In this document: positions 289-61,020 of the stretch, one piece after another
Numbering within the stretch: position 1 is the stretch's first letter
Layout of the letters: each line of letters begins with the position of its first letter
Assembly: GCF_004010195.1 (NCBI RefSeq)
Contig: NC_057718.1
Coordinates: 103,306,754 to 103,370,753, forward strand
Source: Chiloscyllium plagiosum
Lineage: Eukaryota
Direction of reading: 5' to 3'
Length of the DNA stretch: 64,000 nt
The notes under the pieces: generated by a model
What the model saw: the letters and a program-made list of their open reading frames with translations, nothing else
Databases searched by the model: none
Told to the model about the DNA's origin: nothing
Translations under genes and position numbers: made by a program

Positions 289-625
289 GATGAAAAAAAC
301 CACCATTTCAACTGGGACAAGACATCAATCCTGGGACAGGCTGAGCAAAGACATGCCAGAGAATTCCTAGAGGCTTGGCACTCCAACCACAACGCCATAA
401 ACAAACACATAGATCTAGATACCATCTATCAACCCCTCAGAAAATGAACAGGAAATGACATCACCACAAACTCCAGGAACCCCATCCAGGAGAAAGATAT
501 AAATAGAAAGCAGGAGACAACAGCTTCGCTTCACTTGGAGGTCGCCACTGATGATGTTACCTAGCCAGGTAATGAAATGCCTGGATATCAAACCTACAGC
601 TCAGCGAGCAAACCTACACCCTAAA
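289..625 (+). mobile_element. Inverted 3' end/pLTR of the same PLE: GIY-YIG C-terminal tail plus 3' UTR
   Basis: 301-447 translates HHFNWDKTSILGQAEQRHAREFLEAWHSNHNAINKHIDLDTIYQPLRK*, typical of the PLE endonuclease C-terminus; followed by a hammerhead motif. Confidence 0.85.
545..584 (+). ncRNA. Degenerate minimal hammerhead ribozyme (PLE family D)
   Basis: cca-CTGATGA-t-gttacc/tagcca/ggtaat-GAAA-tgcc-tgg; core and stem II intact, expected GAAACGTC mutated to GAAATGCC. Confidence 0.6.
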
Positions 626-1219
626 TTAGTGGTCTCTCTTTATAAAGTAATGGATGGTGAAATTTGAGCAAAGGGGTTTTCAATCAGTTATTGGACACAC
701 GTGTAAATTTACTCACACTTACACACATCTTGTTTATGCATCATCATATTGAACCAATATAGAAACCAGTTTAATTCAAGCCATGGAGATACTTTTGATA
801 ATAAATCATTTCTGCACTGTATAGGGCTAACAAGGGATGAAAATGTCTTACTCAATTCAATGTCATAAAGAAGACTTTCCATTATTTTATGCGTGTCTTC
901 ATGGAATATCCCAGTTGCATTAGACCAAAGGGTTTAGGTTTGCAAATATGAAATCTACACTCTTACACCCCCACATAATGTTAGATATCACCTGTCATGA
1001 TGAATAGAAACAACTATTTCATAATTAACCTGCTATCTGTAATGTTTCTGTTTGTTATGAGCTAAAGGGACACCAGATTTTAATCTGTAAATGTTGAGAT
1101 ATTTTCTGGATTTTCTTTTAACATTGGGGTCACGTTGGTGTGACTTTGCAGATCTTGGTGAACTTATAAATTTGAAAGAATTTTGTCTTACGTGTACAGA
1201 TGGTCATGTTAAATGGAAA

Positions 1220-1415
1220 GTGTGTGTGTGAGAGAGAGAGAGAATATCATTTTTCCTATGAAATTAAAACAGTGATCTGGTTGTGTCTATCTTTATGTGT
1301 AAATGTCTATCTGTGTGGTTGTATCTATGTGCATGTGTGTATGTCGATGTGTGTGTATTTGTTTGCATCTGTACGTGTGTGCTTACTTGTTCATCGGTAT
1401 GTGCGTGTGCTGTGT
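1220..1415. repeat. Degenerate (TG)n/(GA)n microsatellite
   Basis: Directly visible dinucleotide-rich tract. Confidence 0.85.
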
Positions 1416-2229
1416 TAAATGTATTGCATTTTAAAACATCCAACACGCAGGTAAATGTGGCTGTCAAATCTTCTAATTAAAAATGACATCCAAGATTGTA
1501 TCTGAATATTGCAAACTACAATCCTGAAAACCACGTCACAACAAACAAACATTGTGATCTGTGAGTAGCAGTAAATAGTCTTCATCACACGCACAGCTTG
1601 ATAGCTTATGGTTACTTGCATCTGACAGTTAGTTAGATGAGACCTTATCCAGTATTTCTTTAATACCAGAGGGTGGGCTATCTTTCCCACTGAGCTTTTT
1701 TGGAGGTGTTATAAATGTTCCCTAGTGAAGCTTGAGCAATGGAAACCTCTGTAACCGATACAGACTGATGTCGTTTATGTGATGGGGGAAGGAATAAGAA
1801 ACTCTGTAAAGCCAGCTAACAGCTCCCTTGTTTCACATAAGGGTAAAGGTAATCTTAGTTTACAAATTTATTTGCATTTTTAATCTGATTTTTTTTTAGA
1901 TTTAAATTACTTTTTCAGAAAGTTGGAAAAGCCAAGTAAACCAATTTGTTTACAGCATGTGGAGGTTAGGGATTTCTGCCCCTCAGAGTTCTACTTCCCC
2001 CACTGCCATACATTTTGGGCGTATGGACTGGGACACACATTTTTGTTCCTGGCAGTTCTCCAGTTCCTCAAGCCAATGGAGAATCTTCATGAGTGACCCT
2101 ACAAATGGAGACTGTGATGGTGGGGGCGTACATTCAAATCCCCATCATGGCAGTTGAAAGAGTACAAGCTCAATGACGAATGGATCTAGCAAGTAAACTT
2201 CATCTCCACCATGGGGTCATGTTGATCAT

Positions 2230-2365
2230 CACAAGAACTCACCTCATTCACTAACATTCCTTAGGGAAGGAAACTGTCATCCTTACCTGGTATGGTCTAT
2301 GTGTGACTCCAGACCCACAGCGGTGGGGTTGATTTTTAACTGCCCTCTGAAAGCCCCTCGGTTCA
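2230..2365 (+). mobile_element. SINE family 2 fragment
   Basis: ttagggaaggaaactgtcatccttacctgg...gtgactccagacccacagc matches copies at 41780 and 52020. Confidence 0.7.
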
Positions 2366-2454
2366 AAGACATTAAGTACTGGGAAATGTTGTAAAAAAAG
2401 AATCTTGAAAATGTATTGAGGTACCTCAGAGGGAAACATACAGAGTGAACTTTA

Positions 2455-2660
2455 TATTGGTTGCAGAAAGTACCAGGATAGCTCAGCAGGTCTGACAGCA
2501 TCTGTGGAGAGAGAAACACAGATAACATTTAGAGTCCAGCATGACCCTTTTTCAAGGAGAGTCACATTGGACTCGCAACATTAACTCTTTCTCTCCCTCC
2601 ACAAATGCTTCCAGAACTTGAAAGTTTCTCAGCAGTAACTGCAGGATTTTGCCTTTATTT
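2455..2660. mobile_element. PLE family C fold-back remnant
   Basis: ctcagcaggtctgacagcatctgtggaga... and inverted ...tccacaaatgcttccagaacttg; decayed hammerhead arms in the centre. Confidence 0.65.
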
Positions 2661-3039: not shown

Positions 3040-3390
3040 TGCATGCACGCACATACACACACACAGAAACACAGACAGATAGACACAGACAGACACCCAG
3101 GCAGAGACAGAAGTACACAGTTACATACACACACAGAAATATGCATGCACTCACACACAGATCTACACACACAGAGACAGAGACAGACATGGAGACAGAG
3201 ACAGACATGGAGACACAGACAGACACACACACACAGGCAGAAACATGCACACACATGTATTCACGCAGAGACAGTAACACTCAGGCATACACATGCAGAC
3301 ATACATAGATTTTTACAGAGACACACAGACATACATGCATTGACACACATGCAGGAACAAACACACACACGCACACACATTCACACACAC
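3040..3390. repeat. Degenerate (CA)n/(CAGA)n microsatellite
   Basis: Directly visible. Confidence 0.9.
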
Positions 3391-10800: not shown

Positions 10801-11066
10801 GACATGTAAAGCCCTTCGTTTTACTGTTGGATAGTGAGGTTGACAATAAGTAGCAGAGCCTGGAGCAGGACTCCCTTGGTGGCATAGTGTGGGCTGGGAA
10901 GCCTGGACTGGGAATCTGGTGATGCAGAAGGAAAAGTTGGACTCTCTTTAAATTACCTTTTTCTGAGCTCTGATGCCTCACTGAGCTAGACCATGACTTG
11001 TTTGCATCAGTTCTGTTGCTCTGAAACCTTGTGAGGAAATGGCACCTGTCTGGATTAAGTTTTCAA

Positions 11067-11274
11067 GGAGAAAGTGAGGACTGCAGATGCTGGAGATCAG
11101 AGCTGAAAATGTGTTGCTGGAAAAGCGCAGCAGGTCAGGCAGCATCCAAGGAACAGGGGAATCGACGTTTTGGGCATCGACGTTCCTGAAGAAGGGCTTA
11201 TGCCCGAAACGTCGATTCTCCTGTTCCTTGGATGCTGCCTGACCTGCTGCGCTTTTCCAGCAACACATTTTCAG
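11067..11274. mobile_element. PLE family A fold-back element
   Basis: Inverted arms gctggaaaagcgcagcaggtcaggcagcatccaagg / ccttggatgctgcctgacctgctgcgcttttccagc; duplication acctgtctggatta at 11044-11057 and 11275-11288. Confidence 0.85.
11182..11217 (+). ncRNA. Minimal hammerhead ribozyme, intact core (family A)
   Basis: CTGAAGA-a-gggc/ttat/gccc-GAAAC-GTC; predicted cleavage after 11213. Confidence 0.75.
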
Positions 11275-12124
11275 ACCTGTCTGGATTACCACACCAACAC
11301 CCTTGTTAGTGCCAACAGGCTTTCAGAGGTTGAACTGGACACTTTTTCTTCTGCATTTTATTGATGGCAATCTGTTGTTTGACCAGCCAAGTATCAAGTT
11401 CATATTTTCTATTTGATGTTTAGTTTTGCTTGCAACTTTAACTTGTGACCTATTTAACTTGTTCTGTGCTCAACCAGGGATTCACAAAGTCACAGCATTT
11501 TCACTTTTGTGTCCTTTGCTTCTTGCAGCCATCCTCTTATGATTAGAAGGTACTAAATACAAACAAAACATGCAAAAGATCCATCAGTATGTGACAGACT
11601 AGGCCAGGAACGTCTCCAACGTGCCTGTGCAAAAGCAGCTTGACTGTTACAAGGTAAACTACGGGCTGGCTTTTCCTGTCGAGATGCTTCCTGTATATTC
11701 TGGTTTTATTTAATTTCCTTTTTAAATACATTGACAGCAGAAGAAAGTTACGACTGTTGTTTACAAAAATTGAAAATATATGTTGAATAAGTCTATCTTC
11801 CATTCTGTATTCCTGAGGGTAGACCATTTGTTGGGCCATTATAAAGGCTTAGTTCCCAGCTGAAATGAGAAGGATCTAAGGGGCAAGCTTTTCATGCAGA
11901 GGGTGGTGCATGTACATCTCTATGATTCTATGGCTCTATGACTGAAGGACTATGTCTAGGGATTGCCAGCAGGGCCCATTGAAGCCTTGACAAACCAAAA
12001 AGCCTATATCAAGTCTCCGTTAGTTTTATAATTTCAAATGTTCAAAACAAACTGTTTTTGCAGTCGCATCTCGGATTTGTCTCCTATGTTGCGGTCTCAG
12101 CACTTTTCAGAATATGTTTAATTT

Positions 12125-12290
12125 CTGGAAAAGTGCAGCAGGTCAGGCAGCATCCAAGGAGCAGGAGAATCGACGCTTATGCTCGAAACGTCGATTCTCC
12201 TGTTCCTTGGATGCTGCCTGACCTGCTGCACTTTTCCAGCAACACATTTTCAGCTCTGATCTCCAGCATCTGCAGTCCTCACTTTCTCCT
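12125..12290. mobile_element. PLE family A fold-back element
   Basis: Inverted arms, fixed end cagtcctcactttctcct, 15-bp TSD tatgtttaatttctg (12113-12127 / 12290-12304). Confidence 0.85.
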
Positions 12291-13410: not shown

Positions 13411-13634
13411 ATGATTCGGAGATGCCGGTGTTGGGCTGGGGTGTACAAAGTTAAAAATCACAAAACACTAGGTTATAGTCCAACAGGTTTAATTGGAAGA
13501 ACTAGCACTTGGAATGCTGCTCCTTCATCAGGTAGCTGTGCACCACAACCACCAGATGAAGGAGCGTCGCTCCGAAAGCTAGTGCTTCCAATTAAACCTG
13601 TTGGACTGTAACCTGGTGTTGTGTGATTTTTAAC
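13411..13634. mobile_element. PLE family B fold-back element with a mutated hammerhead motif on each strand
   Basis: gttaaaaatcac..ggttatagtccaacagg / cctgttggactgtaacc..gtgatttttaac; TSD actgaaaag(a/c)aat at 13400 and 13633. Confidence 0.85.
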
Positions 13635-13898
13635 TGAAAAGCAATTAAAGGTTATGGTGAGCGGGCGGGTAAGTGGAGCTGGGTCCATGAAAAGTTCAGC
13701 CATGATCTTATTGAGTGGTGGAGCAGGTTCCAGAGGCCAGATGGCCTACTCCTGCTCCTAGTTCTTACGTTCACACTGACTGCAATGGTTCAAGGAGGCA
13801 GCTGACCACCACTTTCTGAAGGGTGATTAGGGATGGGCAATAAATGCTGGCCAGTCATCAATCCCCACATCCTGTGGATTGTGGATCTTTTTAAAAAC

Positions 13899-14222
13899 AT
13901 GATTTGAAGATGCCGGTGTTGGACTGGGGTATACAAAGTTAAAAATCACACAACACCAGGTTATAGTCCAACAGGTTTAATTGGAAGCACACTAGCTTTC
14001 AGAGCGACGCTCCTTCATCAGGTGATTGTGGAGGGCTCGATCATAACACAGAATTTATAGCAAAAATTTGCAGTGTGATGTAACTGAAATTATACATTGA
14101 AGAATTGATTGTCTGTTAAGCCTTTCATCTGTTAGAATACAGTGATAGTTTCACTGTATTCTAACTGTATTCTATCTGTATCACCTTTTGGACTATAACC
14201 TGGTGTTGTGTGATTTTTAACT
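13899..14222 (-). mobile_element. PLE family B element with short inverted arm
   Basis: Same terminus atgatttgaagatgccggtgttggac; TSD ctttttaaaaaca (13887 / 14221); hammerhead at 13989-14026 on minus strand. Confidence 0.85.
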
Positions 14223-15467: not shown

Positions 15468-16610
15468 ATATTCCCCAGGGACAGTATTCCCCAGGGAAAG
15501 TGTTCCCCAGGGTCAGTATTCCCCAGGATCAGTATTTCCCAGGGTCAGTATTCCCCAAGGTCAGCATTTCCCAGGGTCAGCATTCCTCGGGGTCAGTATT
15601 CCCCAGGATCAGTATTCCCCAGGGTCAGCATTCCCCAGGAGAAAGTGAGGACTGCAGATGCTGGAGACCAGAGTTAAAACGTGTGGTGCTGGAAAAGCGC
15701 AGCAGGCCAGGCAGCATCCGAGGAGCAGGAGATTTTTGGCCAGGCAGCATCCTGCTCCTCGGATGCTGCCTGGCCTGCTGCGCTTTTCCAGCACCACATG
15801 TTTCAACTCAGTATTCCCCAGGATCAGTAATCCCCAGGGTCAGCATTTCCCAGGGTCAGAATTCCCTGGGGTCAGCATTCCCCAGAGTCAGCATTCCTCG
15901 GGGTCAGTATTCTCCAGAGTTAGTATTCCCCAGGGTCAGCATTTCCCAGAGTCAGCATTCCTCGGGATCAGCATTTCCCAGGGTCAGTATTCCCCAGGGT
16001 CAGTAATCCCCAAGGTCAGCATTTCCCAGGGTCAGTATTCCCGAGGTCAGCATTCCCCAGGGTCAGCATTCCCCTGGGTCAATAATCCCCAGAGTCAGCA
16101 TTCCTCGGGGTCAGTATTCTCCAGAGTCAGTATTCCCCAGGGTCAGCATTTCCCAGGGTCAGTATTCCCCATGGTCAGTATTCCCCAGGTTCAGTATTTT
16201 CCAGGTTCAGTATTCCCCAGGGTCAGTATCCTCCAGGGTCAGTAATCCCCAGGGTCAGTGTTCCCCATGGTCAGTAATCCCCATGGTCAGTAATCCCCAG
16301 GGTCAGTATTCCCCAGGGTCAGTGTTCCCCTGGTCAGTATTCCCCAGGGACGGTGTTCCCCAGGGTCAGTATTCCCCAGGTTCAGTATTCCCCAGGTTGA
16401 GTATCCCCCATGGTCAATATTCCCCAAGGTCAGTAATCCCCAGGGTCAGTATTCCCCAGGGTCAGTAATCCCCAGGGTCAGTATTCCCCAGGGTCAGTAT
16501 TTCTCATGGTCAGTAATCCCCAGGGCCAGTATTCTCCATGGTCAGTATTCCCTGGGGTCAGTAATCCCCACGGTCAGTATTCCCCGGGGTCAGTATTTCC
16601 TGGGGTCAAC
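15468..16610. repeat. 17-bp minisatellite (CAGGGTCAGTATTCCCC)n
   Basis: Roughly 55-60 diverged tandem units, interrupted at 15639-15808. Confidence 0.95.
15639..15808. mobile_element. PLE family A fold-back element inserted in the minisatellite (hammerhead absent)
   Basis: gagaaagtgaggactgcagatg terminus and inverted arms. Confidence 0.85.
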
Positions 16611-17025: not shown

Positions 17026-17908
17026 AAAGAGTGAGAGACATTTGTGAGACAGCGTTGTGGCAGATCATCAGCAGGCCAACGGTATCACAGCACACAGATG
17101 CGACCAAGTGACTAAAGGGAAGGTCCCCATGTTGTCAAAATGTCTCACCATTAGTTAGAAGAACTTTAACTTCTGTCCATTTTTGACTCGGGCACTGTGC
17201 AATAGTGTACATCAGACTAGGATCACCCATATCACATCAATATTGAAATGGTGTTCAATGTCTCTGCAGTCCTTTGACAAACTCGCTTGGACGATCAGTG
17301 GGCCATCCATAGGGGGCAAGGGGGCTTTCCCCTCAGCCTGCTGCCTCTGTAAAACTGCATTGTGAGTTGGAGACCGAGGGAATGCACTGAGTGAATTATT
17401 TTCAAATCAATCAGACATCACTACTCAATTCTAGCGACCATTGAAAATCCCACATTACTCTTCTCACTCATATTCGGTGCTAACCACAAACAGTTCAACT
17501 TCTATCACAACCTCTGACAAGCCAGTGAAAAATGTATCTGTTGTAAAACACAGTAGGAAATAAATAAATCCCACAAGATATCCTTTTGTCTTGGGGTCCG
17601 TGTGCCAGAGTTCCTTGGTCCCGCGTTACATTTCTGAACCTGTTAGAGATATCAGTCTATCACAGATGTTTCCTTGATAAGTGAGCTATATCCTGTCATT
17701 ATCCAAGGTTAAAGCAGCACTTAAATTATCAGGGACCTTGTGAACATGTGAAGCCAATGGCACTGAAAGAGACAATTCAAATGACCTTCAATGCCAGACG
17801 CTAATCTCAAACTCCTGCTGATGCCAAGTAGTTAGGAGTGTACATCAAGGTCCATCAAGATCTCCCTAGGTCAGTCGGTTCTAAAAGAGTTTTATATTCC
17901 TTAATCAT

Positions 17909-18062
17909 ATGATTTGGAGATGCCGGTGTTGGACTGGGGTGTACAAAGTTAAAAATCACACCACACCAGGTTATAGTCCAACAGGTTTTATTGGAAGCAC
18001 TAACTTTCAATAGCTCCAATTAAACCTGTTGGACTATAACCTGGTGTTGTATGATTTTTAAC
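17909..18062. mobile_element. PLE family B fold-back element
   Basis: Inverted arms; TSD ctt(a/g)atcatatga (17900 / 18062). Confidence 0.85.
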
Positions 18063-18192
18063 TTGATCATATGAGGTGGCAATAGAAGAGGTTACTTCTT
18101 CAGTAGGGTCGGATCGTTCCTTCAATCAAAAAGCCACACTTACATTTTCTTTCTCCTTTTATGAGATTATCATGGTTGGCCCAGCACTGATT

Positions 18193-18669
18193 CTGGATTA
18201 GTGGTGCTGAAAGAGCACAGCAGTTCAGGCAGCATCCAAGGAGCTTCGAAATCGACATTTCGGGCAAAATCCCTTCATCAGGAATAAAGGCAGAGAGCCT
18301 GAAGCATGGAGAGATAAGCTAGGGGAGGGTGGGGAGAAAGTAGCATAGAGTACAATAGGTGAATGGGGGAGGGGATGAAGGTGATAGGTCAGGGAGGAGA
18401 AAGTGAGGTCTGCAGACACTGGAGATCAAAGTTGAAACTTTATTGCTGGAACAGCACAGCAGGTCAGGCAGCATCCAGGGAACAGGAGATTCGACGTTTC
18501 GGGCACAGGCCCTTCTTCAGATAGGTCAGGGAGGACAGGGTGGAGTGGATAGGTGGAAAAGGAGATAGGCAGGTAGGACAAGTCCGGACAAGTCATGGGG
18601 ACAGTGCTGAGCTGAAAGTTTGGAACTAGGGTGAGGTGGGGGAAGGGGAAATGAGGAAACTGGTGAAGT
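18193..18669 (-). mobile_element. PLE family A-related 3' end with a nested family A insertion (18396-18520), within a family-2 SINE
   Basis: Outer TSD ccagcactgatt (18181 / 18670); inner TSD gataggtcagggagga (18383 / 18520); hammerhead motifs on minus strand at about 18250-18285 and 18490-18520. Confidence 0.8.
18488..18520 (-). ncRNA. Minimal hammerhead ribozyme core (family A)
   Basis: Reverse complement CTGAAGA-a-gggc/ctgt/gccc-GAAAC-GTC-gaat. Confidence 0.7.
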
Positions 18670-30985: not shown

Positions 30986-31076
30986 AAAGTTAAAAATCAC
31001 ACAACACCAGGTTATAGTCCAACAGGTTTAAATGGAAGCACACTAGCTTTCGGAGCGACGCTCCTTCATCAGGTGG
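30986..31076 (-). mobile_element. About 90-bp PLE family B insertion
   Basis: TSD ttaagt(a/g)atat (30975 / 31077). Confidence 0.85.
31040..31076 (-). ncRNA. Minimal hammerhead ribozyme, intact core (family B)
   Basis: Reverse complement cac-CTGATGA-a-ggagc/gtc/gctcc-GAAAG-CTA-gtg; stem I cac/gtg, palindromic AGCT stem III. Confidence 0.75.
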
Positions 31077-35370: not shown

Positions 35371-36045
35371 AAACCAAAAACAGAAATTGCTGGAAAAGCT
35401 CAGCAGGTCTGGCTACGTTTCATTTTCCCCTTGGGGACCCTGCAGGCTTCTTGACTCAATATTGAATTCAACAACTTTAGGGATTGAGCTCTCCCCAACC
35501 CCCTTACACCAGGCCTTGTTAGCACATGGTCTGCTATTACACACAACCCATTGTTCGTGTTGAAAGGTGTGGTGCTAGAAAAGCACAGCAGGTCAGGCAT
35601 CATCAGGAATGAAGGGCTTATGCCCGAAATGTCAACTCTCCTGCTCCTCGGATGCTGCCTGACCTGCTGTGCTTTTCCGGCTCCACACTCTTGACTCTGA
35701 TCTCCAGCATCTGCAGTCCTCACTTTCTCCCAATGCATTGTTAGTCTCTGTTAACAGCTCTTCACCCTCCTAGCCAGATCGTGATCCACTCCTTTATCTG
35801 TCCAACTGCTCTTCACTCTCTTTAAGCTCTATCCTTACCTATCTTCTAGTCCTTACCCCCTCCCACCCACCCTATCTTCTGCACATAAAGCAATATTTTC
35901 CTAATTACCTTCTGTAGTAAGTAAGGGTCAGTTGATCTGAAATATTAACTCTGATTTATATCCACAGATGCTGCCAGACCGGCTGAGCTTTCCCAGCAGT
36001 TTCTGTTTTTTGTTTCTGATTTACAACATCCACAGTTCTTTTGGT
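35371..36045 (+). mobile_element. PLE family C 3' end with short inverted arm; contains a nested family A fold-back (35560-35730)
   Basis: FIFPLGTLQAS*LNIEFNNFR (GIY-YIG tail) near 35418; decayed hammerhead near 35910-35950; cagatgctgccagacc terminus. Confidence 0.75.
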
Positions 36046-37734: not shown

Positions 37735-38045
37735 ATTGAATCGAAGAACCCCATTCAGCCCATTGAGTCCATACTAACCCTCTGAAGAGCATCCCACTCA
37801 GACCCACTCCCCAACCCTTTCCCTTTAACCCTGCGTTTCCCATGGCCAATCCACCAAAACTGAATATCTTTGGACATTTGCAGGGAAGAATGCGGAGCCA
37901 ACGTTTCGAGTTCAGTGACTCAGTTTCTGAAGAAGAGTGACTGGATTTGAAATGTTAACGCTGCTTTCTTCACCCACATGCTGCCAGACCTGTTGAGATT
38001 TTCCAGCAATTACTGTTTTTGTTTCAGATCTCCAGTTCTTTGTTT
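37735..38045. mobile_element. HE1 3' fragment (minus strand) followed by a PLE family C fold-back
   Basis: aacgtttcgagttcagtgactc / ttCTGAAGAagagtgactggattt-GAAAtgttaac. Confidence 0.65.
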
Positions 38046-38909: not shown

Positions 38910-39641
38910 GAGGAGAAAGTGAGGTCTGCAGATGCTGGAGATCAGAGCTGAAAATGTGTTGCTGGAAAAGCGCAGCAGGTCAGGCAGCATCCAAGGAACA
39001 GGAGAATCGACGTTTCGGGCGTAAGCTCTTCTTCGGGAATGAGGAAAGTGTGTCCAGCAGGCTAAAATAAAACGTAGATTAGATTAGATTAGATTACATT
39101 ACATTACAGTGTGGATCAGCATAGCCAATTCACCTGACCTGCACATCTTTGGACTGTGGGAGGAAACCGGAGCACCCGGAGGAAACCCACGCAGACACGG
39201 GGAGAACGTGCAAACTCCACACAGTCAGTCGCCTGAGGCGGGAAATGAACCCGGGTCTCTGGCGCTGTGAGGGAGCATAGGGAGGAAGGACTTGGGGGAG
39301 GGGCGTTGGAAATGCGATAGGTGGAGGGAGGTCAAGGTGAGGGTGATAGGCCGGAGTGGGGCAACACGACAGCTGGAGGAAGAGTGCCTCATCTTCCGCC
39401 TAGGAACCCTCCAACCACAAGGGATGAACTCAGATTTCTCCAGTTTCCTCATTTCCCCTCCCCCCACCTTGTCTCAGTCAAATCCCTCGAACTCAGCACC
39501 GCCTTCCTCTCTACCTTTTATCTTAGCCTGCTGGACACACTTTCCTCATTCCTGAAGAAGGGCTTATGCCCGAAACGTCGATTGTCCTGTTCCTTGGATG
39601 CTGCCTGATCTGCTGCGCTTTTCCAGCAACACGTTTTCAGC
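38910..39641. mobile_element. PLE family A with long inverted arms and a nested HE1 SINE (39077-39275, minus strand)
   Basis: 15-bp TSD tacatattcatttag (38895 / 39642); plus arm encodes RQLEEECLIFRLGTLQPQGMNSDF (GIY-YIG tail). Confidence 0.9.
39548..39583 (+). ncRNA. Minimal hammerhead ribozyme, intact core (family A)
   Basis: attc-CTGAAGA-a-gggc/ttat/gccc-GAAAC-GTC-gatt. Confidence 0.75.
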
Positions 39642-40101: not shown

Positions 40102-40470
40102 GTTAAAAATCACACAACACCAACATGCTGTCTAGCTAACACCAATTGTTACAGTTAACCTGAGAATGCAACTCCAAAAAAAAATGTTTTGTGATTTACA
40201 CATGAAAGATGTGAAACTATCATGGTATTCGAAAAGATGAAAGACTCAACAGACAATCAAGGTATTTTTCAATGTATAATTTCGGTTACATCACACTGTA
40301 AACTTTTGCTATAAATCCTGTGCCTTACAACTGTGCCCTCCACAACCACCTGATGAAGGAGTGACACTCCGAAAGCTAGTGCTTCCAATTAAACCTGTTG
40401 GACTATAACCTGGTATTGTGTGATTTTTAACTTTGTACACCCCAGTCCAACACCGACATCTCCAAATCAT
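40102..40470 (+). mobile_element. PLE family B element
   Basis: TSD tgccttacca(t/c)g (40091 / 40470); short inverted 5' arm; terminus catctccaaatca. Confidence 0.85.
40345..40381 (+). ncRNA. Minimal hammerhead ribozyme, intact core (family B)
   Basis: cac-CTGATGA-a-ggagt/gac/actcc-GAAAG-CTA-gtg. Confidence 0.75.
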
Positions 40471-41643: not shown

Positions 41644-41733
41644 CTGAAGAAGGGCTTTGGCCCAAAACGTCGATTTTCTTGCTCCTCAGATGCTGCCTGA
41701 CCTGCTGTGTTTTTCCAGCAACACACTCTCAAC
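41644..41733 (+). mobile_element. About 90-bp PLE family A insertion beginning at the hammerhead core
   Basis: 15-bp TSD aggggatttaaacac (41630 / 41734); GAAA mutated to AAAA. Confidence 0.85.
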
Positions 41734-41779
41734 AGGGGATTTAAACACGTCCATTTCACTGTTACACTGGGGTGGAAAT

Positions 41780-43574: not shown

Positions 43575-44397
43575 CTGAGCTGAAAATGTGTTGCTGGAAA
43601 AGTACAGCAGGTCAGGCAGCATCCAAGGAACAGGAGAATCGACGTTTCGGGCATAAGCCCTTCTTCAGGAATGAGGAAAGTGTGTCCAGCAGGCTAAGAA
43701 AAAACGTAGGGAGGAGGGACTTGGGGGAGGGGCTTTGGAAATGCGATAGGTGGAGGGAGGTCAAGGTGAGGGTGATAGGCCGGAGTGGGGTGGGGACGGA
43801 GAGGTCAGGAAGATGATTGCAGGTTAGGAAGGCGGTGCTGAGTTTGAGGGATTGACCCAGTAAGATTAGTGAGGCATGACCTGCCCCTCACAAAGCCATG
43901 CTGACTGCCTTTAATCACGCTATGCTTTTCCAAATAGTCATAAATCCTATTCCTCAGAATTCTTTCCAAAACCTTGCTGACCACAGANNNNNNNNNNNNN
44001 NNNNNNNNNNNNNNNNNNNNNNNNNNNNNNNNNNNNNNNNNNNNNNNNNNNNNNNNNNNNNNNNNNNNNNNNNNNNNNNNNNNNNNNNNNNNNNNNNNNN
44101 NNNNNNNNNNNNNNNNNNNNNNNNNNNNNNNNNNNNNNNNNNNNNNNNNNNNNNNNNNNNNNGGAGGGAGTGGTCTTTTCGGAATGCTGATAGGGGAGGG
44201 GAGGGGAATATATCACTGGTGGTGGGGTCCGTTTGGAGGTGGCGGAAATGACGGCGGATGATACGTTGTACATGGAGGTTGGTGGGGTGGTAGGTGAGGA
44301 CCAGTGAGGTTCTGTCCTGGTGGCGATTGGAGGGGTGGGGCTCAAGGGCGGAGGAGCGGGAAGTGGAAGAAATGTGGTGGAGGGCATCGTCGACTAG
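43575..44397 (-). mobile_element. 5'-truncated PLE family A spanning an assembly gap, with an internal CR1 fragment (43855-43987)
   Basis: Minus-strand LVLTYHPTNLHVQRIIRRHFRHLQTDPTTSDIFPSPPLSAFRKDHSL (PLE RT-to-endonuclease linker); TSD gtaggtcaaca (43564 / 44398); intact hammerhead at 43637-43672 on minus strand. Confidence 0.85.
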
Positions 44398-44489
44398 GTA
44401 GGTCAACAGCAAACTAACCAAAAGTACAAGGCTCCACATGGACCAGGCTTGGGTCTCAGCTCCCTCCTCCAGAACTAAGGCCATAGTCC

Positions 44490-46428: not shown

Positions 46429-46596
46429 GTTATCCGCATTGGTTGAGGTTGCTTCACTGATTTAAATTACCAAGTTGTTCCCTAAATTTGCAGATAATAT
46501 AGACAGTTTCACTGTGATTCTTTAACTGGCATAGTTCACTTTATAATGCATGTGTGAAACACCTTGAGATGCTTTATAAAAAAATCAAAAGACTGC

Positions 46597-46810
46597 AAAG
46601 TTAAAAATCACACAACGCCAGGTTATAGTCCAATAGGTTTATTTGGAAGCACTAGCTTTTGGAGCGACGCTCCTTCATCAGACAACCATCTGATGAAGAA
46701 GCAGCACTCCGAAAGCTAGTGCTTCCAAATAAACCTGTTGGGCTATAATGTGGCATTGTGTGATTTTTAACTTTGTACACCCCAGTCCAACACCGGTGTC
46801 TCCAAATCAA
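46597..46810. mobile_element. PLE family B fold-back with back-to-back hammerhead motifs
   Basis: ctccttcatcag-acaaccat-ctgatgaagaagcagcactccgaaagctagtg; aaatcaaaaga duplicated on both sides. Confidence 0.85.
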
Positions 46811-46814
46811 AAGA

Positions 46815-47020
46815 TGATGTAAATCTGAAACAAAAACAGAAATTGCTGTAAGAGCTCAGCAGGTCTGGCAGTGTCTGTGAAGAGAAATTAGAGTTAACAG
46901 TTCCGCTCCGATGACCCTTCCTCAGAACTCAGGAAGCATCACCAGACCCAAAACGTTAACTCTGATTTCTCTTCACAGACACTGCCAGACCTGCGGAGTT
47001 TTCTCAGCAACTACTGCTTG
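46815..47020. mobile_element. PLE family C fold-back
   Basis: gcaggtctggcagtgtctgtgaagagaaat / atttctcttcacagacactgccagacctgc. Confidence 0.8.
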
Positions 47021-48829: not shown

Positions 48830-49235
48830 CCTTTAGAACGGAGATAAGGAGAAACTCCTTCAGCCAGAGAGTGGGGAATCCATGGAATTCACTGCCACAG
48901 AAGGCTTTCGAGGCCAGGTCATTGGAGTATATTTAAGACAGAGATAGTTAGATTCTTGTTGGTTAAGGGGATCAAAGGTTACAGGGAGAAGGCGGGAGAG
49001 TGGGGTTGAGAAACTTATCAGCCAGGATTGAATGGAAGTAGACAAACAAAACTGCAGATGCTTGAATCTAAAGTAGACAGATATGATGCTGGAGAAACAC
49101 AGCAAGCCAGGCATCATCAGGAGGTGGAGAAGTCAATATTTTGGGTATAACCCTTCTTCAGGATTGGATTGAATGGCGGAGCAAACTCGATGGGTCAAAT
49201 GGCTTAATTTCTGCCTCTATTCTTGTGATCTTAGA
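48830..49235 (+). mobile_element. CR1 3' fragment with a nested PLE A-related insertion (49036-49165, minus strand)
   Basis: TSD ggattgaatgg (49025 / 49166); insertion begins just before CTGAAGA. Confidence 0.75.
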
Positions 49236-50689: not shown

Positions 50690-51125
50690 AAACAGGGAGA
50701 GGCTGAACAGGCTGGGGCTGTTTTCCTTGGAGCGCGGTGGCTGAGGGGTGACCTTATAGAGGTTTATAAAACCATGAGGGGCATGGTTAGGGTAAATAGC
50801 CAAGGTCTTTTCCCTGGTTGGGGAGTCCAAAACTAGAGGACATAGGTTTAAGGTGAGAGGGGAAAGATTTAAAAGGGATCGGAGGAGCAACTTTTTCACA
50901 CAGAGGGTGGTACGTGTATGGAATGAGCTGCCAGAGGAAGTGGTGGAGGCTGGTATAATTACAACAGTAAAAAGGCAACTGGATGAGTATACAAATAGGA
51001 AGGCTTTAGAGGGATATGGGTCAAATGCTGGCAAATGGGACTAGATTCATTTAGGCTATCTGGTTGGCATGGACGAGTTGGACTGAAGGGTCTGTTTCAG
51101 TGCTGTACATCTCTATGGCTTTATA
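50690..51125 (+). mobile_element. CR1/HER1-like LINE 3' fragment
   Basis: ORF RGERFKRDRRSNFFTQRVVRVWNELPEEVVEAG. Confidence 0.9.
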
Positions 51126-53187: not shown

Positions 53188-53355
53188 GAGTTAATGTTTC
53201 AAATCCAGCAGTGACCATTCAGAACCTTTCTGAAGAGGGTGATTGGACTTGAAAAGTTAACTCTGCTTTCTCTCCACAGATGCTGTCAGACCTATTGAGT
53301 TTCTCTAGTAGCTCCTGTTTTTGTTTCAAATTTCCAGCATCTGCACTCCTTTATT
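53188..53355. mobile_element. PLE family C fold-back
   Basis: gagttaatgtttcaaatcc / ttCTGAAGAgggtgattggactt-GAAAagttaactctg. Confidence 0.7.
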
Positions 53356-56300
53356 TTAAGAAAAAAAAATCAGTCATTTTTTTTGCCACATCTCGGAAAG
53401 TTTAATGAGTTATCTAAATCTAAATTAATGATCCCAATGTTTGTCATTTATTTGAGCCATTATTATGCATTATTGAAATATTTAGGAGGTTGCTACCTGC
53501 AAATCTATACAAACAACAAAAGAAAATATTAAATAAATTAGAAAGAAATGAAATCCAGTGACATTGATTTGTAATTTATTTTTTGTACACATAAAAGCTT
53601 GTGTCCCTTTAGTAAATGACTAGTTTGATAAATGGAGCTCCCATGTTTTCATGACATTTGTTTATTTAAGTGCAGTGTAGACAGAACATTCAGATCAAGA
53701 TCCAGCAGAAATCTTTTTTTGTGTACATTCTCTCCTACCCAGCACTATCTGTTACCACATTCCTTTTGCCTAATCTTTTCCTCTCACATAAAGTGTCCAG
53801 CTTAATCATTCAGTGTTTGCACTTAAAAAGTTATTGATGGTGGCATATATTATCTTTTCCACCCTCCGTCTTATTTGCATTTACCTGATAAAAACCTGAA
53901 GTGCCCTCTGAGCTGAAGGTAAAATACAACTGTAGCGTAACCTGAGTTAACTGATTTGGTCAAAAAAAAGTGAAAGAATTCTTTTCCTCAGCCAACATTT
54001 TGCTATTATTCATTAACGCTCAGACAAGATTAGCTCCCAGAACTGAAAGACAAAATATGAACAGTGAATGTCTGTTGTCAAAGCTTGACAAGTTGTTGCA
54101 ATATTTGTGGGCTGCTTGTAAAAGTTAAAATCAAGAGCCATATTTCACACATTAGAAAATAACATTTGCAGCAGCTTTAGCTTCCTGACTGTTTGTTTCT
54201 ATCCTTCTGTTTAAAATTACAAGATAAAATATTAAATGCACAGCTTTTATTTAGTATGTCCAATCTTTTTGGTATTCAATTGCTTTTATGTGCTTTGCCC
54301 AGAGGACTGAACTGTCACATACCATTTATTGCAACATAAAGGACCTTCGCAAAATCATTTGAGATGATAATTTATGTGTTTATGATAATCATGGAAACAG
54401 ATATATTGCATTATCAGATAAATCTGCCGTCCCTGAAAGGCACCGTCATTGTGAGACACTAAACTGAATTGTTCTCACTGAAGTTCACCCCGTAATCTCA
54501 TGCTTCATATTAGACACAGATATGGGGAGTCCTATTTCTGTCTTCACCTTTTCTCTTGCATCAGAACTTACTGTCAGGTGCTCTTCCAGGATATACTTGG
54601 ATCAATGAGGGTCTGAACATAAGTGGCTATTGTTAGTTTGAAACACGATCTTTCAGTACAAGAGATTGAGGAGGGAAAAGGATGGTTGTGCTTTTTTGAC
54701 ATTCCCTGGAACTGTTGCTATTACTACAGAGAGCAGGTGGAGGCTGGTAAGCTCTCACAGGATGCCTCATTAAAGGCTAACACAGTGACTATTATTGGAT
54801 CAGATCTCATCAGGTGGAGAGGAGCTGAGCTGGCCTAGCATGTGCTGACACCTGAGGCAGACTTGTCTGCTCTGACCTTGGTAATCAGCTGCCAAGTTCA
54901 TCCTTATTATTCCTTTTGTTGGTTCCAGCAGATCTCTGCGTTCAAAGAAATTGGGAGGGGGAGGGAGGCGGATTGTTTAAGGAGATAGAAACAGAGAGAC
55001 AAAAATTGTTAAACGGGTATGCTTCCCCTCCTCCAACTAAATTGTTCATTTCAGAATGCTGCCACACCTGGACCCTGCTCCAGACCAGGTGAGGGATCTC
55101 AATCCCATGGCATATAAATACTGGCTTTCCCTTATTCTTGCAAAATGTCCTGATGAATGCAAGATGAACAATTTGACAAAGTGTGCATTTGTTCCCCCCA
55201 CCCCTCGCCCCAGAAAGATCTTCATCAATGAATACATTTTTTGATGTCCAACAAGAGTTCAGGAATAAAAATGCAACAGTCCATATAAACACTGGTTTAA
55301 AGAAGGTTGCTTTATGATTTCAGTAACAGATTATTTTAAAAGTACATAACATGATCAAAACGGATAAAATTACATTTGGAAATGACCAATTAATTGCTTA
55401 AAATTAGCATCTGCATTAATACCAGGAAACTAAATAAAGAACAATTATTATTCTTACTAGCCCATTTTAAATTAATCACACAAATATTTTATTTTTTAAA
55501 TCGTAAAATTATTTAAGATTTTAGAACTATCAATGAAGCGTTTTATGGTATTGTTTAAACAATATCTGACAGTTTAATGGTTAATTCAAACCCTCACCAA
55601 CTTTACCTTGATGGAAGGGTTAATAATAGATTGCCTCATTTAAAATAAAGGAGACAAGAGACAAGAAACCAGGCAGCTAAATGAGAGTCGCTCTTAATAT
55701 TGGGACGTTACTGGACATTTCACTACTTGTCAACACCCAGTGGGCAGGGACAAGTGTAATTGCTTGGTGAGTTTGAGAAGGGGGAAAGAGGGAGCGTTTC
55801 TGGTCTTCACCCCCGCCCGCCAGCCACTTTACACATGAGTGTGCAGACAATAATTAAACTGAATGCATCGCGGAAACTTCACCCCTTGCCATATGTAGCC
55901 CGGTACAGCTCCATTTAGACCAGTTACTGCAAGAATTGCTTGTCACATTTTACTCACCATGTTTGACAACGACAGCTCAGACGTGTCATTTCAGTGAGTG
56001 TAACTGTAGCTGCCCCTCACGGAGACAGAGAGACACAATTTCTAGGCACCAGGGGGTGAAGAGAGCTGAAAGCGGCTCAATTAATGAGAAAATTTTTCAA
56101 CCAACCTTACGCATCTCTCTTTGCTCTTTTTTAAAACCCCGTTAACTTCGTTTCAAAACGTGGATATTTTTTCCTTGTTTATTTTTTTTCCGGGTTGTAT
56201 TTATTATTTAAAAACTAGAACCGTCACACAAAAGCTGAATTGATGTTTGTTGTAAATTCAGTTTGAGAATGGGTGACCTTTGCAGTTTCTGTGTTGACTC

Positions 56301-58097
56301 AGACAGTTCGCCAGTAGGGGGATGGACATCTGCTGTTCCACAGTAAACACGCCAAAAATAAAATCCCTGCAACCCACAAACTGGGCTTTGCAAAAACAAA
56401 AAATAAATTTCGGATTTAATTATGCTGCACGTGTTTCCCGGTTCTTTCTGCATTGCTCGCCCCCGAAGATTAGCTGTTCTTTCATTAATCCGTGTGTGTG
56501 TGTGTGTGTAAAACACAAATCCTTTGCTGAGTCGTTTTCTTCCCCAAATTATCCTCTTCCTCCCATCCCGCGACTTCCCGGTTCCACATTTGTCTGTGTT
56601 TCTAATAAATAAAACTTTAAATCCAGCGAATGCAGTCAGGCAGCGTTTGCAATTAATGACTTAGAGCGATTTAGCACCGGGCGGAAACAGATTCTGATAA
56701 ACGATTGCGATGCTGTCTGTAAATCGAAGCGAAAATCTAATTTCACGAATATCGGCTCCGTTCTACAAATGGGGACAACAGCCGAGCAATAGAACAGAGG
56801 GAAACAACTCCGGATTTATATTGTTATCGAGTTTGTTGAAGTCTCCCCCAACCCTCTGTTGTTCTCCCGGGGGGAAAGCGGTGTGTTATTTCAGGTTAGA
56901 TTTGATTTTCTACGCTGTTAGCCCCCAGCTGTCTGACGGCGCTAACCTGGAATTATTACAACAATAATTTTATTTTTGGCAGTTTGAAACGGGCTTGGCT
57001 TGCGAGGGAAATTCACACCCGTGCTCCCGACTTTACTGTGAAACCGCGGTGAGAACGAACACGCAGCGGATGAATGAATTCTCCAGCTCGTTCCCTTAAA
57101 ACACACACAGACACCTTTCCCCCTTCGGTCTGAGCATAACCAAAACAATAACTGCTTCAAAACCTTTGGAAATTCGGACAATCAGTTTGCAAATAACAAC
57201 AAAAATAACGCGATAGATTTTCCTGAAAATAACAATAGTTATTAATCTCTGTAGAATCCCTCCTTAATTTCGTTCCTAACTTTCCGGCTGGTCAAAGTTT
57301 TGATTTGAATTTCGTTTCATGCCCAGGATTTCTGTTTGTCCCCGCCACTTCTTGGCATTTTTTCGAACAGTCGTTTAAGGAAATTTGTTGAGAGTCAATC
57401 CATTTGAATTGTGTTGATGGCTAATTCCCACCCCACACCCTCGCTCTCCCCCCCCAACAGGGGTAAAGGGATAATTTGGAAGCGTTTTTTAGTTGAGGCG
57501 TCACACCGACAAGTCTGAACCGGTCGGTATCGGTTAAAGCGGGGGTTTAAAAATCACCAGGCGCTGATTTCGATTGATTAAGTACCCGCACTCAGAAATG
57601 CTGGCGGTTTGAGACGGCCGCTGTGTAAGGTTTGGACCCCGGCTATTTTGTCTGTTCAGAGGCAGGGAGTTGAACTTTCCAGGTACGGGGTAAGGGAGTG
57701 GTTTCGAGCTGCTGCAGGGCCATTTACTACGAGGGAAAGTTCTCAATCAAAGTCCATTTTTCTCTGAAAGGTGCCCCCCTCCCTACCTCCTCCCTGGCGC
57801 TGGGATAGAAACGCCGAGGGTCACCTATACAAACCGCAGAGAGACAGGACCAGGCAGGAACTCAGAGATTCAAAACTGCGGACCAGGGGGATTGTGTTTT
57901 AATAATTGCCCCCACACGCACGCTAATACCCCTCAACCCTAAAACAAAACCCTCACGGGATACATTTAGAAATTTGTTCCAACGAAATTACCTCTCAAGG
58001 AGAATAAATGATTCTAATATTTATTGGTCAGCCTGTTTTGGAGGAATATTCATAAAAGGGAAAAGTAAAGGCATTTACAGATTCATCGTTTCATCGC

Positions 58098-58330
58098 TTC
58101 TGTGTGTCTGAGTGTGTTTGTCTGTGAAATGTGTCTGTGTGTGTCTGAGTGTGTCTGTGTGTGTTTGTCTGTGAAATGTGTCTGTGTGTGTCTGAATGTG
58201 TGTCCGTGTGGGAGAGTTGGTGAATGTGTCTGTGTGTGTATCTGAGTGTGTCTGTGGGTCAGCATGTCTGTGTGTGCCGGTGTGTGTATGAGTGTGTCTG
58301 TGGGTCGGCGTGTGTCCGTGTGTATGTGTG
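58098..58330. repeat. Degenerate (TG)n microsatellite
   Basis: Directly visible. Confidence 0.9.
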
Positions 58331-59506
58331 TTAAATCCTGTACCGCCACCAAATCCCGTTTCTGTCCCCTCTCCTCTTCCCCCATCCCAGGTTGGAGAAA
58401 TAACCCAGTTAGAATGTAGATAACTCCTCTCAGTCCTGAGATACAAAATCAAACCCACCCATTGGATTGGATCGCGGGTTATTGAATCGTTTCAAGCAGA
58501 AATTAGATAGGAGTTGTTGGGGGGTGAAATGGGATTATAGTTGCTATTTTTTTCTCTCTGTTAGGAGGACAGTATTATTTACAGTTTGGTTCGTTTCTAA
58601 AGCGAGCAGCTTTCGGTATTAAAAACAAAGCAGCCCACATTTCAAAATAAAATCCCGAGCAAGGTAATAGAGAGGTCCATTAAAAATTCAACATGAATTA
58701 GACATGGTCCTGGCGGAGTTTATTAACCCGGACTAGCACCCAACACTTTATTGCACGTTCTGTATAAATTCGTAAAGAAGGTGAAGTGGGGGAAGGCACA
58801 GAGTTAGAAGACGCCAGCCTGTCGCACATAGAAAATCTTCCCGTTCCTTTTCGTTTAAGAGTTACGCTGAGGATTGAAACACAGAGAGAAGGATAAATTA
58901 ACTGGACCTTTCTCAGTGAGCTGTCCAGAATGGGGCGAGCTAACTGTCTCCTCGATCCCGACACTGTAAATGTTTCAAACCCCCGGATGGGGAACCCGAG
59001 TCATTTAAAATGCCTTTTAAAGTGCCCCATTAAGTTTGGAAATGTTTTCTGTTAACCGCTCCATTACCCTGAGAAACCTGTGCCTTTTCTCTTGTTTTTC
59101 CGTGCATTGGATTTTTCTCAAAGTCTTGGCGGATGTTTGATGGCCAGGGGCCTGCGGTGTCTGATAGTGACCAGTTAGGGACAGTGTTCAGGGGGAGAGG
59201 TGGTTTGGTTGGGGGGGGGGGGGTGGTGGGTCACTCACCGTGTTNNNNNNCCCTCCCCAGTCCCCCCCCCCCCCCCACTTCTTGTTGGAAGTTAACCTGT
59301 CCATGCCCCCTCGTTGCTGGGATCCTCCTGAGCTCACTAATCCGAAGCTGGTGCGGAGATGTTTTGGGGATTTTCCTCTCGGCCTCATTGATTGGGTACA
59401 CTTCCCCTCCCAGACCTGGCTACCATCGATCCTGCTCTCCACTTTCCTTCGGAGATAACCCAATTACAAACATCAATAAGAAGCTGACCGAGAATCATTA
59501 TCCTCC

Positions 59507-59522
59507 TGACAGTGATAGATGA
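59507..59522 (+). promoter_or_regulatory. Abutting Meis/Prep (TGACAG) and Pbx-Hox (TGATAGATGA) sites
   Basis: TGACAG 59507-59512 immediately followed by a TGATNNATKR match at 59513-59522. Confidence 0.45.
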
Positions 59523-59709
59523 CCGACCAGAAATAGGCTCTTTCTCTCCCTCTCTCTCTCTCAACAAGCTGGGAGCCCGGGGGTTTGGGGCCGGACTGAC
59601 TTATCACCAGGGAAACCGGTCACATCCAACGCAAAGGCAGCGCGATGAGAATATTAACATCATTTCCTTCTCCTTCTAGCCACAGTTTGACTTGAAAACA
59701 CAATCCTAT

Positions 59710-61020
59710 ACACTCTCACACACTCAAACACACACACACAAACACACACTCAAACATACATACAAACACCACACACNNNNNNNNNNNNNNNNNNNNNNNN
59801 NNNNNNNNNNNNNNNNNNNNNNNNNNNNNNNNNNNNNNNNNNNNNNNNNNNNNNNNNNNNNNNNNNNNNNNNNNNNNNNNNNNNNNNNNNNNNNNNNNNN
59901 NNNNNNNNNNNNNNNNNNNNNNNNNNNNNNNNNNNNNNNNNNNNNNNNNNNNNNNNNNNNNNNNNNNNNNNNNNNNNNNNNNNNNNNNNNNNNNNNNNNN
60001 NNNNNNNNNNNNNNNNNNNNNNNNNNNNNNNNNNNNNNNNNNNNNNNNNNNNNNNNNNNNNNNNNNNNNNNNNNNNNNNNNNNNNNNNNNNNNNNNNNNN
60101 NNNNNNNNNNNNNNNNNNNNNNNNNNNNNNNNNNNNNNNNNNNNNNNNNNNNNNNNNNNNNNNNNNNNNNNNNNNNNNNNNNNNGACACACACACACACA
60201 CAGCGAGACACACACACACACTCAAACACACACATTCAAACACATACTCAAACACCACTCTCAAACACACACACACTCAAACACCACTTTCACACACAGT
60301 CAAACACATGCACACTCAAACACTACTCTGAGACACATACTCTTGAACACACACACATTCAAATACACACACTCAAACACACACAATCAGACATACAGTT
60401 GAAAAATGTGGTGCTGGAAAAACACAGCAGGCCAGGCAGCATCCGAGGAGCAGGAGAATCGATGTTTCAGGCATAAGCCCTTCTTCAGGAATCAGGGCTT
60501 ATGCCCGAAACGTCGTTTCTCCTGCTCCTCAGATGCTACCTGGCCTGCTGTGTTTTTCCAGCACCACATTTTTCAACTCTGGTCTCCAGCATCTGCAGTC
60601 CTCACTTTCTCCTACAATCACACATACACTCAAACACACACTGTCAAACACATTTTCAAACACATTCATATATACACTCTCAAACATACACTTTCAGGCA
60701 CACCCTCTCAAACATACACACATGCATCCACTGTCTCACACAGCCACACTCACATCTATACATTCACACACACTCTCTCTTTTAGACATATACACATCTG
60801 TACACTCTTACACAGATTCACACCTGTACACACATGCACTGTCACAGACCGTGACACATAGATACACACATTCCCTTACACACACTCATCACATGCATGT
60901 ACTCATACACACACACATACTCACACACAAAAATACACACCCTCAAATACATACACAAACACACACTGTCAAACACATACTGTGAAATGTATAGAAAAAC
61001 ACTCGCTCTCACACACTCAC
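59710..61020. repeat. Long degenerate (CA)n tract with an N gap
   Basis: Directly visible. Confidence 0.9.
60397..60613. mobile_element. PLE family A fold-back inserted in the CA tract
   Basis: TSD acaatca(g/c)acatac (60383 / 60614); inverted arms; fixed end ctcactttctcct. Confidence 0.85.

Follow-up and report, generated by a model that had tools for sequence, protein, structure and literature searches.

Minimal hammerhead ribozymes have been linked to Penelope-like elements (PLEs) since 2014, when they were described in the pseudo-long terminal repeats (pLTRs) of metazoan PLEs (Cervera and de la Pena 2014, PMC4209133); in that work they showed no cleavage as monomers and weak cleavage as dimers, and helix I measured 4-5 bp (2 bp in Drosophila virilis). 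PLEs with an endonuclease (EN+) encode a reverse transcriptase (RT) followed by a GIY-YIG endonuclease (EN) and are heavily truncated at the 5' end, with an inverted 5' pLTR, a 30-40-base tail at one end, and a target duplication (Craig et al. 2021, PMC8557442; Arkhipova et al. 2013, PMC3846280). The Poseidon element PAc of Anolis encodes a protein that cleaves and extends both strands of DNA; it initiates at two internal sites and works on uncut RNA. The hammerhead cleaves only with the element protein, and in vitro insertion does not depend on the ribozyme (Frangieh et al. 2024, PMC11167929). The role of the ribozyme and the completion of Penelope insertion are named as open questions in these reports (PMC8557442, PMC11167929). 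We analyzed 64,000 nucleotides of the genome of the shark Chiloscyllium plagiosum (NC_057718.1, positions 103,306,754 to 103,370,753; hereafter the window), which hold many hammerhead motifs in four families, A to D. These motifs are minimal type I hammerheads of three Penelope lineages, and most window copies are stubs of 90-130 bases, probably produced when the reverse transcriptase initiated within the tail and reached the 5' end of an RNA that had not been cut.

We scanned both strands of the window with a structural descriptor, using 100 dinucleotide shuffles of the window as a control. Both catalytic boxes together with a stem II of 4 bp or longer were present at 12 sites; UH was added at 10 of these and the palindromic pair as well at 7 (shuffle means 0.21, 0.05, and 0, respectively). 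The seven that combine CUGANGA, a stem II of at least 4 bp, GAAA, the palindromic pair, and UH, which we define as intact cores, lie at 11186, 39552, 43668, 18520, 40350, 31072, and 14021. A catalogue built against real copies having native upstream DNA contains 46 repeat arms. The GAAA box is covered in 30 of them, and 23 span the two catalytic boxes; 16 are tail-only, some of them probably chance matches to flanking DNA. An earlier sequence-only reading of the window had counted about 20 motif copies, a figure that suits decayed and intact copies taken together and overstates the seven intact cores. All 11 motif positions it cited are exact or off by at most one base (37928 becomes 37927, and 46925 lies on the minus strand). 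It had also anticipated that standard annotation would miss the motifs, and Rfam at its gathering threshold indeed yields no match in the window, as expected for minimal cores.

The order of the boxes, CUGANGA and GAAA with an NUH site, is type I. As in the published minimal hammerheads (PMC4209133), helix III lacks a loop and is reduced to a palindrome at 15.2-16.2 (ACGU in A, C, and relatives of D; AGCU in B), and stem II carries G10.1-C11.1 with an unpaired extra base between 9 and 10.1, after A9, that is missing in some C copies. Both palindromes had been recognized from sequence, as had the mutation in the window's family D copy; the window's C and D copies have lost the palindrome. Also shared with the published set are the many families per genome, the predominance of solo truncated copies, and the neighbors on opposite strands. 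The stems are shorter here, 4-5 bp for stem II in A-C and 2-4 bp for stem I, against 7-8 and 4-5 bp in Schistosoma (PMC4209133). By subfamily, stem I has 4 bp in A2, C, and the U3-A8 group, 3 bp in B and D, and 2 bp followed by a U.U mismatch in A1/A3; no window copy reaches four contiguous pairs. The suggestion that bases after the cleavage triplet pair with those before CUGANGA accordingly stands for B and D (3 bp) and the main A type (2 bp), and fails at 18520, where stem I is absent.

To place the families, we sampled 160 stretches of 10 kb at round coordinates on large contigs, leaving out small contigs (1,543,334 non-N bases; loci numbered L, extrapolations referring to a 3.56-Gb genome). 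Judged by their sequences, all four families are tied to Penelope-like RT/GIY-YIG genes and belong to three unrelated lineages. Families A, B, and D show no significant match to one another, and the tails of A and C align at 84% over 32 nt (E 3e-6), which reduces four supposedly sequence-distinct families to three lineages. Family A loci carry an RT whose relatives are up to 86% identical, and GIY-YIG scores above the Pfam cut-off in L270; the closest database protein is from Chiloscyllium punctatum (86%), followed by Mobula (74%). For family B, an open reading frame (ORF) piece lies upstream on the same strand in 5 of 25 loci (L037, L049, L050, L052, and L054), with 29% identity to a full-length PLE protein (E 3e-26), 31% to family A, and no Pfam hit. 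Family D loci combine RVT_1 above cut-off with an endonuclease region, and of the 23 family C copies examined, one is preceded by a PLE ORF on its own strand and two have inverted pieces. RT followed by a C-terminal GIY-YIG region thus precedes the repeat in A, B, D, and one copy of C, in line with EN+ PLEs, and these ORF links uphold the proposal of minimal type I hammerheads, as defined in PMC4209133, in Penelope terminal repeats. The inverted 5' repeat, the optional 30-40-base tail, and the target duplication are all present as well. Between RT and EN, a cysteine linker (C-x4-C-x2-C) is found in A and B, is absent in D, and is decayed in the sole C locus with an ORF. By this motif, which separates Neptune from Penelope/Poseidon elements in PMC8557442, A, B, and C would be Neptune-type and D Penelope/Poseidon-type. 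Among 21 ORF loci examined, many with N gaps, none shows a pLTR-ORF-pLTR partial tandem unit. Five family B loci (L037, L046, L049, L053, and L054) have a CA-rich low-complexity stretch between the end of the ORF and the conserved 3' region.

The hammerhead fold has been maintained between subfamilies. In nine hand-picked subfamily copies (B rows and one A relative, which the aligner had shifted out of register, were excluded), pairing holds in 93.6% of cells, versus 80.0% after shuffling, and 16 cells are changed on both sides, a number reached in 0 of 500 shuffles; three of the four stem I pairs are changed on both sides between subfamilies. The differing stem II sequences do still pair, as the sequence-only reading had noted, and between families the cores are kept where the flanks cannot be aligned. 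Position 3-8 is C3-G8 in seven of the nine copies and U3-A8 in two, a variant also found in Schistosoma (PMC4209133). The U3-A8 subfamily, which is related to C and has a self-complementary 4-bp stem I, occurs at six sample loci (L139, L150, L181, L201, L230, and L241), and one B-lineage copy in the sample also has U3-A8.

Individual genomic copies tell a different story. Family A cores are mutated at the rate of their tails (44/1080, 4.1%, versus 193/4212, 4.6%; P 0.51), with CpG sites at 14.8%, and the whole core is kept in 49 of 108 A and 18 of 42 B copies. Selection on genomic copies is therefore not seen in A; together with the compensating changes between subfamilies, this argues that selection acted on founder RNAs. 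The dispersed copies are decaying, fastest at the CpG of the ACGU palindrome region. Since family A copies decay at the rate of their flanks, the description of the locus as dense self-cleaving RNA is overstated.

The ends of the copies speak to how they were made. We measured 5' ends in 80 young A1 copies (at least 90% identity) and 50 family B copies (at least 88% identity). They fall within -14 to +5, at the front edge of the hammerhead, in 38 of the 59 young A1 copies that reach +5 and in 23 of 31 B copies; to the left and right of this pile-up, the frequency of young A1 ends is about 0.04 per 10 bases. In the bin with the cut site there are 3 of 72 ends in A and 5 of 42 in B (P 4e-10 for A and 0.022 for B); a cleavage fingerprint, in the form of copies beginning at the cut site, was not found in A and is weak in B. 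The edge is sharp in family A, in which 71 of 88 short copies with a CUGA box keep 0-5 native upstream bases. YYANWYY, the initiator consensus, is matched by 45 of 48 native upstream sequences in A and by all 3 in C, with the +1 falling on position -4, where stem I begins. Target duplications (at least 10 bp, searched in a window tied to the alignment end, with a shifted-position control) flank 28 of 240 solo copies (control 1), and 20 of these 28 end within -20 to +7 and none within +26 to +35; those around window insertions measure 10-16 bases. Across the pile-up point, family A RNA read depth falls from about 630 to 120, in part because subfamilies differ upstream. The pile-up likely marks the start of the element RNA. 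An excess of G at -5 (9 of 11) is confounded by inverted arms or slippage, and we do not use it as support. Splicing was rejected as the origin of the pile-up, since no ends fall at -34 to -15 even though an acceptor-like sequence is present roughly 25 bases upstream in A1. Native upstreams of A and C cores (for example window 43690-43710, minus strand; L230; L086) have a pyrimidine run plus AG 2-25 bases before the core that resembles a splice acceptor, as in the D. virilis Penelope intron that ends at helix I.

At the other end, tails stop at two sites after the cut site, at about +60-69 and +95-100 in A and at +50-64 and +90-99 in B, the two lying about 35 bases apart (the far site sits near the end of the reference sequences used). 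Two internal RT starts downstream of the hammerhead are likewise a feature of Anolis PAc (PMC11167929). The sample contains 103 head-to-head pairs, 48 with both arms at 88% identity or more. Target duplications flank 26 of these 48 (control 2), which makes each pair a single insertion. Exactly one long tail is present in 35 of 36 pairs of subfamilies A1, A2, and B (P 5e-10); the 12 pairs of other or mixed subfamilies were excluded, their long tail lying outside reference coverage. In PAc, the start site shows no strand difference in vitro, whereas the genomic pairs here use one site per end. A tail on one inverted repeat was already known (PMC3846280, PMC8557442), and palindromes have been explained as self-priming (PMC3846280). 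However, among the 30 informative pairs there are 13 in which the arm with the long tail is the one reaching less far in the 5' direction, and such an arm cannot be a fold-back copy of the other; we therefore reject a fold-back origin. Pair junctions show short overlaps and inserts, and 5' ends and junctions differ between copies. The counted one-tail rule, the contradiction of fold-back, and the clustering of 5' ends at the hammerhead front edge go beyond what these two reports describe. The main text of PMC11167929, as available to us, makes no mention of a pile-up at the hammerhead edge, although its supplementary figure S2, on genomic copy coverage, may already show one.

RNA reads came from about 2% of run X21, a poly(A) single-cell RNA data set, of which 2,262 fall on family B and 1,495 on A. 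Most are 90-95% alike, so they derive from other copies, possibly of another species, and say nothing about expression of the window. A further run, X22, yielded no aligned read, and none of the data sets listed as containing the stretch is recorded as RNA. Read depth is continuous across the B cut site, which means that uncut RNAs exist. Neither A nor B shows a pile of read begins or ends at any point, the cut site included, in a run in which 3' fragments of about 30 bases would be lost. An uncut RNA template and a lack of RNA reads ending at the cut site are shared with PAc (PMC11167929). In 880 of the family B reads, poly(A) begins at 40405 or 40408, 12-15 bases past a hexamer; of 50 copies, 37 have this as ATTAAA and 13 as AATAAA. 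The interval 40388-40430, like all family B tails, holds a poly(A) hexamer, a cleavage dinucleotide, and a GU-rich downstream element. Family B stubs may thus supply poly(A) sites that end host transcripts.

The sample holds 90 intact cores (58/Mb), or about 207,000 genome-wide by extrapolation, with triplets GUC in 65, CUA in 16, GUU in 5, and CUU in 4. Stem I reaches 2 bp or more in 78 of them, 3 bp or more in 33, and 4 bp or more in 11, and cores with a 4-bp stem I would number about 25,000. This is an unusually high copy number next to the roughly 9,000 of Xenopus and 4,000 of coelacanth, counted with a different descriptor (PMC4209133); axolotl has up to 120,000 motifs, apparently canonical (PMC7229834). 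GUU, proposed as one of the cleavage triplets, does occur in these intact cores, whereas the window's GUU copies are decayed and lack the palindrome. The window itself is typical, its 111 cores per Mb not being a significant excess over 58 (P 0.079), and we rejected it as a hotspot. Tail-bearing arms number 367 for A/C, 90 for B, and 32 for D, of which 156, 48, and 2 are head to head; these 489 arms extrapolate to about a million, and head-to-head hairpins hold 204 of the 457 A, C, and B arms. Nine same-strand core pairs with compatible palindromes lie within 5 kb of each other. One locus, L201, has seven intact cores per 10 kb, mostly family B, the only such cluster among the 160 stretches. 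Of the claim of a very high density of self-cleaving RNA, the number of cores survives and the abundance of self-cleaving RNA is unsupported.

We propose that the endonuclease would make a staggered double cut in the target, and that each DNA end would prime its own cDNA, one per tail site. Reverse transcription would begin in the tail and run off the start of the uncut RNA at the hammerhead front edge. For lineages A and C, we would place this start at the base that opens stem I. Two cDNAs would then be joined head to head, or a single cDNA joined to the target. Going by published work, the ribozyme would be relevant only in the founder element RNA, as a dimer held by the 4-base palindrome or with the element protein, and the stubs would be passive. 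We more tentatively entertain a bolder version, for which we would not claim an even chance: the transcript begins at the first base of stem I, the ribozyme clips off its capped first 32 bases, and every palindromic insertion records two primings of uncut RNA, one per fixed tail site, so that the arms would form a fossil map of integration. Several observations weigh against run-off from an RNA start. None of 12 RT loci and 9 N-terminal loci, many with N gaps, reaches an upstream repeat that would give a full-length 5' end. The initiator match is missing from all 30 native upstreams of family B despite its pile-up, B has a second small peak just past the cut site (9 of 59 ends at +30 to +34), and family D offers 8 usable copies, too few to show a pile-up. 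An alternative hairpin over the pile-up bases (mean -5.5 kcal/mol in A and -4.4 in B) could stop the enzyme. A template cut and re-ligated is indistinguishable from an uncut one, and the enzyme could cross the cut site on it too. In D. virilis Penelope, the start site precedes a 75-base intron by 46 bases (PMC2377424), and that intron ends in helix I (PMC4209133); a start at stem I would thus depart from the known arrangement. Finally, B cores are mutated less than B tails (12/420, 2.9%, versus 108/1848, 5.8%; P 0.011), a gap that may come from subfamily variation in the tail and ascertainment.

The same hairpin is central to the alternative we regard as most serious, if doubtful: that, on a longer RNA that is multimeric, the enzyme stalls or switches template where a hairpin or a bound protein covers the CUGA box, with no RNA start involved. 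The hairpin's span of -14 to +12 in both A and B, the spread of 5' ends across about 20 bases, the short overlaps and inserts at junctions, and the absent initiator in B would all suit stalling, and multimeric transcripts have been proposed (PMC11167929). Yet this hairpin is a weak one, averaging -2 to -5.5 kcal/mol, and no peak is seen at stem II, which is stronger; moreover, the A ends lie on a sharply bounded plateau of 0-5 native bases, and solo copies with target duplications share the end point. That the dispersed copies form a large active pool of self-cleaving RNA acting on host transcripts seems to us very improbable. Intact cores and same-strand compatible pairs are numerous enough to invite the idea, family sequences occur in the poly(A) RNA run, and B cores are slightly better kept than their tails; against this stand the decay of A cores at the tail rate, the full core surviving in fewer than half of A and B copies, the scarcity of 4-bp stem I, the many arms locked in hairpins, the lack of a read-end pile in either family (short cut fragments would be lost), and the inactivity of monomers in PMC4209133. 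We give as little credence to short copies being a separate non-autonomous family, resembling short interspersed elements or retrozymes, spread from short master stubs. Stubs do far outnumber long copies and have their own target duplications, and one short tandem dimer exists (L104), but 5' ends and pair junctions vary from copy to copy, stubs fit the same subfamilies as ORF-bearing copies, and tandem arrays are rare, whereas retrozymes are defined by tandem units in bioRxiv 10.64898/2026.07.22.740005. Animal non-LTR retrozymes (PMC7229834; bioRxiv 10.64898/2026.07.22.740005) are likewise short, non-coding, PLE-linked hammerhead repeats; they differ in being head-to-tail units, usually with canonical hammerheads and circular RNAs, where we see solo or head-to-head stubs with minimal cores. 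The window has no head-to-tail array of complete hammerheads, and the L104 dimer, of family C stubs from L104:1386 onward, has the arrangement that could form a dimeric hammerhead but is decayed.

Features of the window that bear on this account are as follows.

16..213, minus strand: family D insertion, inverted RT-gene piece (5' inversion; tblastn to PLE proteins, 34-43% identity)
289..510, plus strand: family D, C-terminal portion of the endonuclease region in a Penelope/Poseidon-type ORF (91% to P0003 of locus L072)
548..581, plus strand: family D minimal hammerhead, dead; palindrome and U16.1 mutated (relatives ACGU/GUC); short tail to 626
2484..2618, unstranded: family C head-to-head pair, old and decayed
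11066..11274, unstranded: family A head-to-head insertion flanked by a 14-bp target duplication (11044 and 11275); the minus arm starts at +14 and is long-tailed, the plus arm starts at -3 and is short-tailed
11186..11213, plus strand: family A intact core, GUC; stem I 2 bp; predicted buried in hairpin
12122..12290, unstranded: family A head-to-head pair without CUGA box; 15-bp target duplication
13411..13635, unstranded: family B head-to-head pair, both cores mutated
13993..14021, minus strand: family B intact core, CUA; stem I 3 bp; stem II closed by G.U
15637..15813, unstranded: family A tail-only head-to-head pair within a 16-bp tandem array
17908..18064, unstranded: family B head-to-head pair without CUGA box
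18189..18400, minus strand: family A subfamily copy (CUGAUGA), native upstream, core decayed
18394..18520, minus strand: family A solo stub cut exactly at C3; core intact at 18493-18520, no stem I; 16-bp target duplication
31044..31072, minus strand: family B intact core, CUA; stem I 3 bp; copy begins 6-9 bases upstream of C3
35567..35730, unstranded: family A head-to-head pair, incomplete cores
35790..36040, plus strand: family C copy, native upstream, core decayed
37927..37956, plus strand: family C core, palindrome lost
38911..39077, minus strand: family A inverted arm, core mutated
39552..39579, plus strand: family A intact core, GUC, native upstream
40350..40378, plus strand: family B intact core with native upstream, CUA; part of an insertion at 40095-40475 that a 10-bp target duplication flanks
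40388..40393, plus strand: polyadenylation-signal hexamer in family B tail, with loose poly(A) ends of RNA reads at 40405 and 40408
41644..41734, plus strand: family A solo stub beginning at C3, G12 mutated; 15-bp target duplication at 41630 and 41734
43641..43668, minus strand: family A intact core, GUC, native upstream to 43853
44164..44403, minus strand: family A-type ORF piece (RT thumb; 74% to P0004)
46596..46813, unstranded: family B head-to-head pair, one mutation per core; 11-bp target duplication
46812..47019, unstranded: family C head-to-head pair; decayed core 46896-46925 on the minus strand
49086..49166, minus strand: family A relative, older, decayed
53230..53258, plus strand: family C core, palindrome lost
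60403..60613, unstranded: family A head-to-head pair; core 60461-60488 (minus), palindrome CpG-decayed

Several of the earlier calls of intact copies are not supported. The core is kept at both 11186 and 18520, but the 18520 copy is cut at C3, and at 11186, a copy with three native upstream bases, the surrounding head-to-head insertion folds at a predicted -164 kcal/mol. The interval 11150-11274, once suggested as a cleavage construct, takes in the inverted arm and for that reason is unsuitable. Between the ORF piece at 44164..44403 and the 43668 core lie an N gap and other repeats. The 16-bp tandem array at 15469-16608 (about 11 plus 50 copies) is split by the family A palindrome at 15637-15813. 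The family A inverted structure at 38911-39642 is broken near 39100-39277 by another dispersed repeat of about 160-180 bases, which recurs at 9168, 20898, 32927, 36233, and 42736.

Elsewhere in the window, a repeat of 200-300 bases appears in both orientations (20447-20691, 27817-28125, 34028-34280, 50816-51115, and 63515-63801), which are probably 3' ends of a CR1-type long interspersed element, and 63827-63996 is a 33-bp tandem repeat of 5.2 copies. Pfam searches for host exons with 127 of the 156 unmasked window frames returned no hit, though short exons would escape. The segment 55800-58000 is CpG-rich (observed/expected 0.88 in 56001-58000) and free of Penelope repeats, and a minus-strand ATG at 55960-55958 is directly followed by the splice-donor-like GTGAGTAA. 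If this ATG belongs to a first coding exon, the DNA to its left would be the intron of a minus-strand gene, and the minus-strand cores at 43668, 31072, 18520, and 14021 would be transcribed in sense.

In the literature searched, which did not extend to subscription papers or Repbase, we found no report of such hammerheads or Penelope families from a shark; the available sections of PMC4209133 name none, and bioRxiv 10.64898/2026.07.22.740005 covers one cartilaginous fish, counting tandem retrozymes. The value of these repeats is as a data set on Penelope integration, in which the end statistics give sharp predictions: the template would cross the cut site uncut or re-ligated, something would end where stem I begins, and a palindromic insertion would use a different start site at each of its ends.

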